Of a DNA stretch of 64,000 nucleotides, positions 55,488 through 60,000 are shown piece after piece. A program made the position numbers and the translations under genes. Origin of the DNA: Escherichia phage BEU5. The stretch is from the sequence record OM632664.1; one strand, given 5' to 3'. The notes beneath the pieces were generated by a model. The model made no database searches. It had not been told where the DNA came from and saw only the letters and a program-made list of their open reading frames with translations. Each line of letters opens with the position of its first letter. Positions within the stretch are counted from its first letter, which is position 1.

Positions 55488-55500
55488 GTTGCTTCGCAAC
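55488..55500 (+). promoter_or_regulatory. N4-type virion-RNAP hairpin promoter (P1-like): 5-bp stem, 3-nt loop
   Basis: GTTGC-TTC-GCAAC on top strand (template-strand loop GAA) followed by TTATGG; predicted +1 G 11 nt downstream of the loop centre, about 47 nt upstream of ATG 55552. Confidence 0.6.
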
Positions 55501-55551
55501 TTATGGACATGTTGTCCGTATCTTATCAATCAACTATTGGAGGCTAATACT

Positions 55552-55878
55552 ATGACTACTCAGGCTAACGTTCGTATGACTGTAGGAACTCTGTTGGGTA
55601 CTGTTAATGAAGCAGCAACTACTGTAGCTGATACATTCGGTACTGCTACTAAAGCAGTAGGTATGCTTAATCGTTATGTAACTAAACAAGCAGATAAACA
55701 AATCATTCGTGACAAATTAGAAATGCATGAGTTTACCAATAAACTTATTGAAGAAACTGCAATGCAAGAAGCTATTCGTCAGAAACAAATCTTAGACTTC
55801 TGCAAAGATGAACAAAACAAAGAATTGTTCTCTAATGCCTATGACCGTCTTAGCAAAATCTTAGCAGACTCTAAATAA
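55552..55878 (+). CDS. early protein, function unknown
   Basis: ATG 55552 with GGAGG RBS (track ORF 55489 starts at TTG inside the promoter hairpin); 108 aa, followed by terminator. Confidence 0.5.
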   Translation: MTTQANVRMTVGTLLGTVNEAATTVADTFGTATKAVGMLNRYVTKQADKQIIRDKLEMHEFTNKLIEETAMQEAIRQKQILDFCKDEQNKELFSNAYDRLSKILADSK

Positions 55879-55890
55879 TAACAAACAAAT

Positions 55891-55914
55891 GGAGGCTCCT
55901 CGGAGTCTCCTTTT
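55891..55914 (+). terminator. intrinsic terminator
   Basis: stem ggaggctcc/ggagtctcc (one wobble) with 4-nt loop, then TTTT. Confidence 0.6.
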
Positions 55915-55956
55915 ACATAGAACCGATAGTTCAATAACTATCTACTTTAAAGATAA

Positions 55957-55969
55957 GAAGCTCCGCTTC
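55957..55969 (+). promoter_or_regulatory. N4-type virion-RNAP hairpin promoter (P2-like)
   Basis: GAAGC-TCC-GCTTC followed by TTTTGG; template strand reads CATCCAAAAGAAGCGGAGCTTCTT with GGA loop, matching the N4 early-promoter hairpin as I recall it. Confidence 0.75.
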
Positions 55970-56082
55970 TTTTGGATGAAGTAATGCATCCAATCCTGTA
56001 TGAAATCTTAACCTTTTGTCTGGGATTACTTACCGACAAAGTAGTCTCAACTAATCAAAATCAACTATCTGGAGAGTACAAA

Positions 56083-56469
56083 ATGGCTATCACTACTTTT
56101 GCTAAAACCTTTGGTCAGGCTTCTACTAAAACTGAATCCAACAATGGTTCTCGCCCGAAAGCTCAGTTCTGGATTAACGTTGGCTATGTAGCTAATGAAG
56201 GCACTGAAGATGAACGTTTCATCTCTCTGCCTACTGGTATTCCACTGGATACTCAGGAGCATCTGCCAACCAATTCCTCTAACGAAGACTTCCGTGCAAT
56301 GCGTTGTGCACAGAACGATTTGTTAGACCAACTGATGGAATTTGCTAAGACTCTGGAACCAGGTCAGGAAGGAGTTATCTCACTGCAAGTTCAACTTCGT
56401 CGAGTTAAAGAAGAAGCTCCTGCTATCTCAGCAAGTGAGAATAAATATGCTCGTAAACTGACTTTCTAA
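56083..56469 (+). CDS. early protein, function unknown (N4 gp2-like activator is one possibility)
   Basis: ATG 56083 with GGAGAG RBS; track start 55972 coincides with the predicted transcription start and is rejected; 128 aa. Confidence 0.45.
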
Positions 56470-56476
56470 TCTCTAT

Positions 56477-56508
56477 AGGACTACCTTCGGGTAGTCCTTT
56501 TTAATTTT
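56477..56508 (+). terminator. intrinsic terminator
   Basis: perfect 9-bp stem aggactacc/ggtagtcct, loop ttcg, T-rich tail. Confidence 0.7.
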
Positions 56509-56611
56509 AACTATCTAAATACTAAAGTAGAGATTTTGACCCTTTTCGACGAAGGGATACTAAAAAGTAATGGATAGTTTGAGCAGATGTTTTAGAAGAA
56601 GGAGTATACAG

Positions 56612-56926
56612 ATGCATCCTCTTATAAAACGATTCCTGATGGACTATCAGGAGTGGTTAGATAATGGAGCCAGTGAACCTCATTACCTGTTTGATAGGGG
56701 TAGTGGACTGTGTGTTCAACTAGGCAAGTATCTTAGAAGACAGCCAATCAGTGAAGAAACAGTAGATGCTCTGTGTAAGAGCTTTACTCATTTACTTCCT
56801 GATAATGATACAAATCTACCATTCAATGTAGATGTTCTCGACTACATGATGGAGTGTTCTGATGGAAGATGTCATCTGAACCAAAGTCGAATTAATTGGA
56901 TTAAGAGTCAGTTGGAGAGTAAGTAA
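56612..56926 (+). CDS. hypothetical early protein
   Basis: ATG 56612 with AGGAG RBS; 104 aa. Confidence 0.4.
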   Translation: MHPLIKRFLMDYQEWLDNGASEPHYLFDRGSGLCVQLGKYLRRQPISEETVDALCKSFTHLLPDNDTNLPFNVDVLDYMMECSDGRCHLNQSRINWIKSQLESK

Positions 56927-56929
56927 ATT

Positions 56930-57917: not shown

Positions 57918-57923
57918 ATAGGA

Positions 57924-57953
57924 GGGGGCTACTAAGCCCTCTTCTTATTTTTA
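57924..57953 (+). terminator. intrinsic terminator
   Basis: 7-bp stem (one G-U) gggggct/agccctc, loop acta, then ttcttattttt. Confidence 0.5.
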
Positions 57954-57990
57954 TCGTGGTTATTAAGCAACTATCTTAGAGGAAGGAATA

Positions 57991-58206
57991 ATGGAACAGT
58001 TAAACTACGGTTATAAGATTAAACGCAATCAAGTAAGAGGTTCTTGGTTATTTCTCGTTTATGGCAAGCCAATCTATGAATTACATCGTGGAGAGAAATC
58101 CAAGACCTATTACGTAACTCATATTGCTACAGGAAAGACTCCTGCATGTGCAGGATTGCTTCGTGATGCAATTATGAAAGCATGTATGTTAGAAGGACTT
58201 CTATGA
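57991..58206 (+). CDS. hypothetical early protein
   Basis: 71-aa ORF with GAGGAAGGA RBS. Confidence 0.4.
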   Translation: MEQLNYGYKIKRNQVRGSWLFLVYGKPIYELHRGEKSKTYYVTHIATGKTPACAGLLRDAIMKACMLEGLL

Positions 58207-58517
58207 ACCAAATCATTGCTATCCCACAGCATAAAGCTCGTATTGCTGACAGGAATATTCGTATTCATTATCCAATGCCTTTGAGCAATCCATTCCAGAA
58301 AAATGAGAGAACCACGGATGAAGATATAGCAGCAGCTTATGAGGCATATCTTCGTAACCGTTTGGTAAGCGGTGACAAGCTCATTACGGCTGAAATGGAA
58401 CGAATTGCTAAATTCATTATGGATGCTACTGACAAACCAGTTGGCCTCATTGGTAATGAACTGGAAGTGAATGTAATCCGTAAGATTATTATGGAGGCTC
58501 TTAATGGGAATCAGTGA
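58203..58517 (+). CDS. hypothetical early protein
   Basis: ATG 58203 overlapping upstream stop (ATGA) with GAAGGA RBS; 104 aa. Confidence 0.4.
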   Translation: MNQIIAIPQHKARIADRNIRIHYPMPLSNPFQKNERTTDEDIAAAYEAYLRNRLVSGDKLITAEMERIAKFIMDATDKPVGLIGNELEVNVIRKIIMEALNGNQ

Positions 58518-58680
58518 ATCCCAGGCTATGGCTATTAAACAGTTAGCCTTCAACTGCCTTAGTGCTATGAAGGCATTTAATGAAGCAAAAACTTTCCCTG
58601 ACCAGAATAAAGCTCGTATTCGACTTTATCAGTCTAAGAAAGATTTTGAAGAATATCTGGAAAGTATTACGGTGAAATAA
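58504..58680 (+). CDS. small hypothetical protein (58 aa)
   Basis: ATG with GGAGG RBS; stop overlaps next ATG. Confidence 0.35.
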   Translation: MGISESQAMAIKQLAFNCLSAMKAFNEAKTFPDQNKARIRLYQSKKDFEEYLESITVK

Positions 58681-59000
58681 TGAAAACAATATTAATTGTT
58701 CATGATGCTGATTTTAATGATGTTGATAAAATGATGCGTAATATTGATTATGTAGCTCAGACAACTCCAGCATTTAAAGAAGAATTTACTCTATATTGTG
58801 ATGCTAATTCACCACTAGTTCCCATTCTGAAAGAAGCCAGTTTACCCTTCTCTACAGATAATTTCCCTGAAGAACCTGATTATGTAATTTCATTTATTTA
58901 TGACTTACATGATGGCTCAGAACCAAGTGAATTGGCTATGAGTCAATGGAAATCCAGAAGACCTGTATATGCATTTCAGGTAGTTAAATCAAGGAGTTAA
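58680..59000 (+). CDS. hypothetical early protein
   Basis: 106-aa acidic ORF. Confidence 0.4.
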   Translation: MKTILIVHDADFNDVDKMMRNIDYVAQTTPAFKEEFTLYCDANSPLVPILKEASLPFSTDNFPEEPDYVISFIYDLHDGSEPSELAMSQWKSRRPVYAFQVVKSRS

Positions 59001-59002
59001 CT

Positions 59003-59371
59003 ATGTTAGGTGATAACACTAATGCTCTGTTTGGGGTGTCAGCCAGACCTATTATCATTGTTAATAAACATCATGGTAAAAAGGGTGAATATATTGGGCG
59101 TGGTTCTCCTCTGGGTAATCCATTCGTTATTGGTAAAGATGGAACCAGAGAAGAAGTAATTGCCAAATATAAAGTATGGCTACAAGAACAGATTGATAAA
59201 GGTAATCCAGTTGTACTGGATGAATTAAATCGTCTTGGTAATAAAGCCATTGATGAAAAAGGATTAGCTTTACAATGCTTCTGTTATCCAAAACCTTGTC
59301 ATGGCGAGGTTATTAAAGAGAAGTTAGTAAAAGCTATGTATAACTACTTTGTGGAAAATCCTAATGGGTAA
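59003..59371 (+). CDS. DUF4326-like protein (candidate)
   Basis: motif string YIGRGSPLGNPF ... LQCFCYPKPCHGEVI resembles the pattern I associate with DUF4326 (GNPF ... LxCxCxPxxCHxxV). Confidence 0.35.
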   Translation: MLGDNTNALFGVSARPIIIVNKHHGKKGEYIGRGSPLGNPFVIGKDGTREEVIAKYKVWLQEQIDKGNPVVLDELNRLGNKAIDEKGLALQCFCYPKPCHGEVIKEKLVKAMYNYFVENPNG

Positions 59372-59549
59372 ACAATGCAAATGTGGTAAAGGCTATATAT
59401 CCCAATGGGATGGTAAGTGTGGTCATTGTAGAACCAAGAAAGAACAACGTGACCATGAATATGCACTTCAAGAAATGATTGTACCTGTTGAGAATTTAGG
59501 TATGGCTCCACTTGAGGCTTACAAATATATAAGGAGATTATGCAAATGA
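59364..59549 (+). CDS. small zinc-ribbon-like protein
   Basis: CKCGKGY ... CGHC pairs of cysteines; ATG overlaps upstream stop. Confidence 0.3.
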   Translation: MGKQCKCGKGYISQWDGKCGHCRTKKEQRDHEYALQEMIVPVENLGMAPLEAYKYIRRLCK

Positions 59550-59926
59550 AAGAAGTATTCGTATTTGGTTCTAACCTAGCTGGTGTACATGGTGCTGGTG
59601 CTGCAAAGACAGCATATAAGAAACATGGAGCCAGATGGGGTAAAGGGCATGGTCATTATGGTGACAGCTATGCCATTCCCACTAAAGATACCAATATCAA
59701 AACGATGACTATTGAAGACATTCGTACATTTGTAAAAGCCTTCATTGTCTATGCTGCTAATCATCCAGAACTTAACTTTAAAGTTACTCGTGTAGGTTGT
59801 GGATTAGCTGGTATTGATGATTCTGTTATGGCCTCTATGTTTGAAAATGCCACTGGTAACTGTTCCTTTGACTTAGCATGGAAAAGTTACTTAGGGGATG
59901 ATTTCAACTACTGGGGAACGTTCTAG
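59540..59926 (+). CDS. Gly-rich small protein, possibly macro-domain-like (ADP-ribose binding) - tentative
   Basis: VFVFGSNLAGVHGAGAAKTA resembles macro motif NAANxxLxGGGGVxxAI; later GDSYAIPTKD and VTRVGCGLAGIDDS resemble the other macro motifs; protein is short (128 aa) for a macro domain. Confidence 0.3.
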   Translation: MQMKEVFVFGSNLAGVHGAGAAKTAYKKHGARWGKGHGHYGDSYAIPTKDTNIKTMTIEDIRTFVKAFIVYAANHPELNFKVTRVGCGLAGIDDSVMASMFENATGNCSFDLAWKSYLGDDFNYWGTF

Positions 59927-59944
59927 CTCATACGTTAGGTAATA

Positions 59945-59959
59945 AGCTGCTCCGCAGCT
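59945..59959 (+). promoter_or_regulatory. N4-type virion-RNAP hairpin promoter (P3-like) upstream of the RNAP II genes
   Basis: AGCTGC-TCC-GCAGCT (6-bp stem, 3-nt loop; template loop GGA) followed by TTTTGG, the same downstream context as the 55957 hairpin. Confidence 0.7.
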
Positions 59960-60000
59960 TTTGGTAATTAATATGTTTAACCAATTTTGGAGAATATGCG

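Follow-up and report, generated by a model that had tools for sequence, protein, structure and literature searches.

The locus considered here raises a simple question: are the three short inverted repeats that precede early genes in Escherichia phage BEU5 (OM632664.1) hairpin promoters of the type used by the phage N4 virion RNA polymerase (vRNAP), or do they have some other origin or function? An earlier note on this DNA had proposed the first answer. Our analysis of the whole 64-kb stretch (hereafter the window) supports that proposal and makes it more specific. As judged by sequence and position, the three elements are almost certainly the early promoters of an N4-type coliphage (Enquatrovirus), and they correspond to N4's own P1, P2 and P3.

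The hairpins read as previously described at 55488-55500, 55957-55969 and 59945-59959, and are followed by TTATGG, TTTTGG and TTTGG, respectively. On the plus strand, which is the non-template strand, P1 (55488-55506, positions -17 to +2) reads GTTGC-TTC-GCAAC-TTAT-GG, P2 (55955-55975) reads AAGAAGC-TCC-GCTTCTT-TT-GG, and P3 (59944-59964) reads AAGCTGC-TCC-GCAGCTT-TT-GG. The stems had been reported as 5-6 bp, but the perfect stems are actually 5, 7 and 7 bp, with inverted repeats spanning 55488-55500, 55955-55971 and 59944-59960. On the template strand the cores are GC-GAA-GC for P1 and GC-GGA-GC for P2 and P3, giving loops of 5'-GAA-3' in P1 and 5'-GGA-3' in the other two. If the loop centers at 55494, 55963 and 59952 are numbered -11, a G lies exactly 11 nt past each center, as had been claimed, at 55505, 55974 and 59963. 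This G is the predicted +1 nucleotide; it is paired with a template C in all three elements and is followed by a second G at +2.

N4 promoters have been defined as hairpins with a 5-7 bp stem and a 3-nt loop centered at -11 (PMC4496689), and all three elements have this architecture. Each also carries the template loop 5'-G(-10) R(-11) A(-12)-3', a C(-9):G(-13) closing pair and a G at -8, and thus the template determinants known for N4 (A or G at -11, G at -10, G at -8 and C at +1) are present in three of three cases. Structure prediction for the template strands returns the expected hairpins, with energies of -3.7, -5.3 and -6.7 kcal/mol for P1, P2 and P3, although the folding energy of the P1 hairpin is by itself no outlier (z = -1.3).

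Comparison with sequenced phages makes the assignment precise. The window genome belongs to Enquatrovirus. Its promoter region shows 100% identity to Escherichia phages BEU13 and BEU44; identity to N4 (EF056009) is 98.3%, with differences at about 1.7% of bases. None of these differences falls within the promoters, which match N4 base for base from at least -17 to +6; one of them is at 55954, 2 nt upstream of the 7-bp P2 stem, where the window has T and N4 has G. The N4 equivalents lie at nucleotides 90-102 (P1), 559-571 (P2) and 4547-4561 (P3; 4546-4566 with flanks), and the distances from the left end are the same in both phages (89, 558 and 4546 nt). The downstream genes gp1, gp2 and gp15/16 are likewise shared, as is the vRNAP with its contact residues.

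Published oligonucleotides also agree with two of the elements. The reverse complement of P2 (55955-55978) is CATCCAAAAGAAGCGGAGCTTCTT, the template sequence that the earlier note had matched to N4 P2. Its 55957-55975 portion has an exact reverse complement, CCAAAAGAAGCGGAGCTTC, that is present in the P2 oligonucleotide employed for cryo-EM (PMC13492108). Similarly, the reverse complement of the P1 hairpin (55488-55500), GTTGCGAAGCAAC, occurs in a published P1 oligonucleotide (PMC13434306). Thus, the P1 and P2 hairpins are those present in oligonucleotides from published N4 polymerase structures. For the literal P3 sequence, a search of the literature examined returned only a table for phage KP8 and unrelated papers. 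P3 is therefore assigned through its identity with N4, its status as the sole third site of the motif, and its location before the RNAP II genes.

The position of the elements within the genome is also as expected for vRNAP promoters. At 55399/55400 of the window, the right end of N4 (…GAGTTTAGTATT) meets its left end (TGGTGGGGC…), such that N4 nucleotide 1 corresponds to window position 55400. From this alignment the window is evidently a circularly permuted assembly whose physical left terminus lies at 55399/55400. The P1 hairpin sits 89-101 nt from this terminus, and the three elements lie leftmost on the linear genome, directed rightward, before early genes gp1, gp2 and gp15. Sigma-70 promoter-like sites are rarer between 54 and 64 kb than in shuffled sequence (15 versus 30), and the early genes thus show no evidence of host-type promoters in front of them. 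A search of Rfam at gathering thresholds recovered only four tRNAs and nothing within 55-60 kb.

The elements precede early genes, as the earlier note had stated, namely gp1, gp2 and the RNAP II genes. The first gene after P1 is gp1 (55552-55878, plus strand), whose ATG is 47 nt past the predicted +1. Downstream of P2 lies gp2 (55984-56469, plus strand), which encodes a single-stranded-DNA-binding cofactor of RNAP II. Its start had been placed at 56083, whereas the N4 record places it at 55984, 10 nt past the P2 +1. The codon at 56083 is an alternative in-frame ATG behind a strong Shine-Dalgarno sequence (GGAGAG), and the choice between the two starts is ambiguous. P3 is followed on the plus strand by gp15, the RNAP II small subunit (60001-60810, 269 aa), with its ATG 38 nt past the predicted +1 at 59963, and by gp16, also of RNAP II (60822-62072, 416 aa).

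Because hairpins between genes may serve other purposes, we considered whether the elements could be weak intrinsic terminators or RNA-level stem-loops that end upstream transcripts. TTTT follows both P2 and P3, all three elements fold when single-stranded, and P2 lies 45 nt past a real terminator-like site between gp1 and P2 (55891-55914, plus strand; hairpin at 55891-55910, GGAGGCTCCTCGGAGTCTCC followed by TTTT). However, our terminator scan called none of the three elements, and upstream of P1, which is 89 nt from the physical genome end, there is nothing to terminate. A constant distance to GG, together with an invariant loop and closing pairs, is atypical of terminators, and the same sequences are experimentally defined promoters in N4. 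A terminator function is therefore very improbable. The earlier note had also placed two of the hairpins directly after terminators; this is correct for P2, but the scan found no terminator-like site directly upstream of 55488 (P1) or 59945 (P3).

Another concern is that inverted repeats of this size are common, and the three could be functionless products of chance. Indeed, each strand of the window has 116 perfectly paired stems of 5 bp or longer that enclose 3-nt loops, and the bare heptamer GCTYCGC occurs at the frequency expected by chance (4 seen versus 4.2 expected). In contrast, three of these four heptamers belong to a perfectly paired hairpin whose stem is 5 bp or longer and are followed by GG at +1/+2. 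Scanning the 64-kb window on both strands, as the earlier note had suggested for the genome, recovers the full pattern (GC-TYC-GC core, 5 or more stem pairs, and GG at +1/+2) at these three sites only. In 300 shuffled versions of the window with dinucleotide composition preserved, the heptamer with a stem had a mean count of 0.07 and the full pattern a mean count of 0. Because the full pattern occurs three times in the window and in none of the shuffles, chance does not explain it.

In addition, the three sites share one strand (plus) in the early region, where they occupy no more than 4.6 kb and precede gp1, gp2 and the gene for the small subunit of RNAP II, are identical to N4, and keep orthologous positions in other genera. 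The reading as chance repeats is thus effectively refuted, and we give it the least credence of all the alternatives considered here. The fourth heptamer, GCTCCGC at 37116-37122 on the minus strand, was rejected as a promoter: its perfect stem is just 3 bp, and it falls at the end of a late-region open reading frame (37111-38316, minus strand). A relaxed scan of both strands of the window, requiring four of five stem pairs (one mismatch allowed), a TYC loop and the -9/-8 bases, yielded no candidates beyond P1, P2 and P3.

Related phages provide further evidence on what is conserved. The arrangement NNNGC-TCC-GCNNN…TGG precedes the gp1, gp2 and gp15 orthologues of G7C, KP8, Moo19, PhAPEC7 and K60PH164C1, wherein the outer stem bases differ yet stay complementary. 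Across 19 promoters from six phages, the heptamer is constant except for the purine at -11. When the alignment is anchored on the coding sequence of gp15, the P3 hairpins fall in register and two compensatory double changes are evident, in G7C and K60PH164C1. The covariation count is supportive only and is partly circular, since the sites were chosen by a scan that requires perfect stems; the alignment anchored on gp15 is less so.

These comparisons bear on the possibility that the repeats are palindromic operators for a regulator that binds double-stranded DNA, with no extrusion of the template strand. Inverted repeats immediately 5' of genes are compatible with such sites. However, between genera the outer stems keep complementarity rather than sequence, the asymmetric 3-nt loop (TCC or TTC) is invariant, and structures of vRNAP with single-stranded hairpins are known (PDB 3c2p and 3c3l; PMC4496689). 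We consider operators to be as implausible as terminators, and hairpin promoters remain the preferred interpretation.

The window also carries the polymerase required by this interpretation. The 3500-aa vRNAP gene reported earlier is indeed present as the N4 gp50 orthologue (19768-30270, minus strand; ATG at 30270, 3500 aa). Its DNA is 98.0% identical to that of N4, and its product can be aligned over the full length with N4 vRNAP chains in the PDB (11gp, 9pnr and 3c2p). All nine promoter-contact residues, numbered as in mini-vRNAP, are retained (K114, R119, W129, K267, K268, K849, K850, D901 and R904). By homology, it is evidently the vRNAP encoded in the window that recognizes the three hairpins.

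A mechanism can be proposed for the window phage from the N4 literature on the basis of sequence identity. Entry into the cell would begin with the left end of the genome, and host DNA gyrase would supercoil the entering DNA such that every inverted repeat is extruded to form a small cruciform. Escherichia coli SSB would then melt the non-template hairpin, while the unusually stable template-strand hairpin, with its 5-7 bp stem and 5'-G-R-A-3' loop with C:G closure, would persist. The vRNAP would contact the loop at -11/-10 through W129, K114 and R119, and would contact -9/-10 and -8 via the major groove through D901 and R904. Its intercalating beta-hairpin would also engage the DNA hairpin, and binding would unlock the active site. 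Synthesis would start opposite the template C located 11 nt from the loop center to yield RNAs with 5' GG, wherein P1 would serve gp1, P2 would serve gp2 and the following early genes, and P3 would serve the two RNAP II subunits. N4 promoters need both gyrase-driven extrusion and E. coli SSB and are inactive as relaxed duplexes (PMC4496689). We infer that the window promoters share the dependence on gyrase and SSB and that they initiate at 55505, 55974 and 59963.

Among other phages, the Enquatrovirinae KP8, G7C, Moo19 and PhAPEC7 share with the window the GC-TCC-GC core, the 5-7 bp stem, TGG at -1 to +2, and hairpins before the orthologues of gp1, gp2 and the RNAP II subunits. Every promoter of these relatives carries TCC, whereas P1 of both N4 and the window carries TTC (A at template position -11). 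The KP8 record labels the same sites as early promoters, and four early hairpin promoters (P1-P4) have been predicted for that phage (PMC6950046), compared to three in the window. Pseudomonas phage LUZ7, mapped by ONT-cappable-seq, likewise uses a virion RNA polymerase with a conserved 3-nt loop and a G start, with stems of at least 4 bp (PMC9163698). However, its starts lie 13-14 nt from the hairpin center rather than 11 nt, and some of its nine early start sites have no hairpin (PMC9163698). T7-type polymerases are members of the same single-subunit family, with an analogous specificity loop, intercalating hairpin and upstream recognition element (PMC4496689), yet T7 promoters are 23-bp duplexes, in contrast to the single-stranded template hairpins of the N4 type that need supercoiling and SSB. 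The early region of Erwinia phage Ea9-2 (Erskinevirinae) yielded no hairpin with both a GC-TYC-GC core and G at +1, and therefore the exact motif is not universal in Schitoviridae.

The predicted transcript starts have an additional feature. The P1 transcript would begin at +1 with the stem-loop GGACA-UGU-UGUCC (55505-55517), and the P2 transcript would begin with GGAUG-N8-CAUCC (55974-55991); the P3 transcript start has no such stem-loop. The +1 stem is kept wholly or partly in G7C, KP8, Moo19, PhAPEC7 and K60PH164C1: all five pairs are retained in the P2 set, where the loop varies, and four of the five P1 orthologues have a reduced hairpin (4 bp with a 5-nt loop). We found no description of a 5' RNA stem-loop in the N4-related literature examined. 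One idea is that it contributes to the function of the early transcription unit, which we regard as rather unlikely. If true, the stem-loop might aid release of nascent RNA from the single-stranded template, protect the 5' end, or control translation from the gp2 start codon within the 3' arm. Plain sequence conservation, either coding or promoter-proximal, is a possible alternative given that P3 has no stem-loop and that no compensatory changes were seen in the P1 and P2 RNA stems among the compared relatives.

P1, P2 and P3 are already known, and our result is a correct rediscovery rather than anything new. The hairpin promoters P1-P3 of N4 reportedly trace to work by Haynes and Rothman-Denes in 1985, Glucksmann et al. 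in 1992 and Gleghorn et al. in 2008. The promoters read by N4 vRNAP have been reviewed (PMC4496689) and are among the best-characterized phage promoters, and there is thus no gain in biological understanding. The practical use lies in annotation: because the closest database records, BEU13 and BEU44, are unannotated, the coordinates given here supply the early promoters, predicted transcription starts and physical genome end for these phages.

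The three hairpin elements that an earlier note proposed as N4-type promoters are present in the sequence as it described them. P1 (55488-55500) reads GTTGC-TTC-GCAAC followed by TTATGG, P2 (55957-55969) reads GAAGC-TCC-GCTTC followed by TTTTGG, and P3 (59945-59959) reads AGCTGC-TCC-GCAGCT followed by TTTGG. Scanning for 3-nt loops flanked by perfect stems gave stem lengths of 5, 7, and 7 bp, respectively (55488-55500, 55955-55971, 59944-59960), rather than the 5 to 6 bp originally given. As had been observed, a G lies exactly 11 nt downstream of each loop centre (55494, 55963, and 59952 for the centres; 55505, 55974, and 59963 for the G), and a second G comes next. 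The template strands carry GC-GAA-GC (P1) or GC-GGA-GC (P2 and P3), with G at -8, C at -9, and C at +1 in every case; that of P2 is CATCCAAAAGAAGCGGAGCTTCTT, just as first read. Folded as single-stranded DNA, the template strands adopt exactly these hairpins, with energies of -3.7, -5.3, and -6.7 kcal/mol and z-scores of -1.3, -3.1, and -3.8 for P1, P2, and P3.

In pairwise alignments, phage N4 shows no difference in any of the three hairpins or in their flanks, and the same motif scan applied to the first 6 kb of N4 returns exactly three sites, centred at 96, 565, and 4554. The P2 promoter DNA of a 2026 cryo-EM paper (…CAGCCAAAAGAAGCGGAGCTTCAAC; PMC13492108) contains the exact reverse complement of 55957-55975, which bears out the earlier matching of the second element to N4 P2. 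Likewise, the hairpin in the P1 DNA of a second 2026 paper (…GTCAAAAGTTGCGAAGCAAC; PMC13434306) is the reverse complement of 55488-55500. The literal P3 sequence was not found in the published text searched. We assign the third element as P3 because it is identical to N4, is the only remaining motif site, and precedes the RNAP II genes by 38 nt. N4 promoters are conserved from -17 to +1, with a GC-rich heptamer centred at -11 and inverted repeats on both sides; vRNAP, the virion RNA polymerase, recognises template bases -11 A/G, -10 G, -8 G, and +1 C, and the bases from the stem to +1 serve as a ruler (PMC4496689). Every determinant listed there can be read from the template strands of P1, P2, and P3. 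Thus, identity to N4, the published P1 and P2 DNA, and the complete set of determinants support the proposal of N4-type vRNAP hairpin promoters.

Over the 4.8-kb region, identity is 100% to Escherichia phages BEU13 and BEU44, both of which have records without annotation, and 98.3% to N4 (EF056009 / NC_008720). Position 55400 aligns with N4 nucleotide 1, and the final bases of the N4 record adjoin its first bases at 55399/55400. The window is therefore a linear Enquatrovirus genome assembled in circular permutation, with its physical left end 89 nt upstream of P1. Given that the direct terminal repeats of N4 are reported as 390-440 bp (PMC3715699), P1 would occur twice in virion DNA. Just inside the left end, a C-run (55431-55438) comprises 8 C versus 9 in N4, and a G/T difference comes directly after it. 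Elsewhere, ARAGORN and Rfam agree on four tRNA genes at 17697-18375 (Asn-GTT, Ser-TGA, Thr-TGT, Pro-TGG); N4 itself has three according to a paper on N4-like phages.

By the N4 record, the downstream genes are gp1 (N4 154-480, here 55552-55878), gp2 (586-1071, here 55984-56469), and the RNAP II small subunit, gp15 (4603-5412, here 60001-60810). Two elements had been said to follow a terminator directly. This holds for P2 (predicted terminator 55891-55910), but terminator prediction returned no such site just upstream of P1, at the genome end, or of P3. The start of gp2 is ambiguous between ATG 55984 and in-frame ATG 56083. The latter, given in the earlier note, is preceded by GGAGAG, whereas the N4 record uses 55984, which lies 10 nt past the P2 start site and is without a Shine–Dalgarno sequence. 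The N-terminal extension implied by the N4 annotation is hydrophobic, spans 33 codons, and stays in frame across three genera, including in G7C, KP8, and PhAPEC7; in Moo19 it begins with GTG and is interrupted by TAG (record L004, 3612-3640).

The bare heptamer GCTYCGC occurs at chance frequency in the window (4 found versus 4.2 expected), and three of these four matches combine GG at +1/+2 with a perfect stem of 5 bp or more. When the whole window was shuffled 300 times with dinucleotides preserved, heptamer plus stem averaged 0.07 occurrences and the full pattern 0. The fourth heptamer (37116-37122, minus strand) has a stem of only 3 bp, falls where a late-region ORF ends, and was rejected as a promoter. 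A looser scan, run across both strands with one stem mismatch allowed, yielded no sites beyond P1, P2, and P3. Within 54000-64000, sigma-70-like promoter matches are depleted (15 versus 30.3 ± 5.5 in shuffles) and terminator-like hairpins are enriched (16 versus 6.4), including those after early genes at 55891, 56477, 57920, and 62078.

The pattern NNNGC-TCC-GCNNN, then TGG at -1 to +2, is found ahead of the gp1, gp2, and RNAP II subunit orthologues of five other Enquatrovirinae phages: G7C and PhAPEC7 (Gamaleyavirus), KP8 and K60PH164C1 (Kaypoctavirus), and Moo19 (Moovirus). Neither the heptamer nor GG varies, whereas outer stem positions change yet remain complementary (GTTGC/GCAAC versus CATGC/GCATG; GAAGC/GCTTC versus GACGC/GCGTC; GCTGC/GCAGC versus GGTGC/GCACC and GCAGC/GCTGC), a covariation count that is partly circular because the sites were chosen for perfect stems. 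When the gp15 coding sequence serves as the alignment anchor, the P3 hairpins are in register and the two double changes are seen independently. The published KP8 annotation places early promoters at these same sites (PMC6950046; KP8 record). In LUZ7, analogous hairpin promoters were confirmed by start-site mapping (PMC9163698), although their spacing differs from the N4 type. The annotation of a Klebsiella phage record (OY978778.1 61977-73567) appears out of register with its sequence: pseudogene-flagged "tail spike" and "portal" CDSs are annotated on the minus strand where early hairpin promoters and the RNAP II small-subunit gene lie on the plus strand.

The predicted P1 and P2 transcripts open at exactly +1 with stem-loops, GGACA-TGT-TGTCC (55505-55517) and GGATG-AAGTAATG-CATCC (55974-55991); no comparable 5′ stem-loop occurs in P3 transcripts. 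All five relatives retain the whole P2 stem, with variable loops. KP8 retains the P1 stem, which is shortened to 4 bp in G7C, Moo19, PhAPEC7, and K60PH164C1. Plain sequence conservation could account for both stem-loops, since no compensatory changes were seen in these relatives.

The expected polymerase is also encoded. As the earlier note held, the window carries a 3500-aa vRNAP gene: an ORF at 19768-30288 (minus strand) aligns over its full length with N4 vRNAP chains from the PDB, the 3500 aa running from the ATG at 30270, and its DNA is 98.0% identical to that of N4. The named promoter-contact residues for the loop (K114, R119, W129), the stem base (K267, K268), and the backbone (K849, K850), and those in the specificity loop (D901, R904), all occur where expected. 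By identity with N4, we adopt the mechanism of the N4 review (PMC4496689). The left genome end would enter the cell first, and gyrase-induced supercoiling would extrude the hairpins. Escherichia coli SSB would then melt the non-template hairpin while sparing the template hairpin, whose binding by vRNAP would unlock the active site, and RNA synthesis would begin with G at a distance of 11 nt from the loop centre. Judged by sequence, these elements are the textbook N4 early promoter system, already known, in a near-identical phage.
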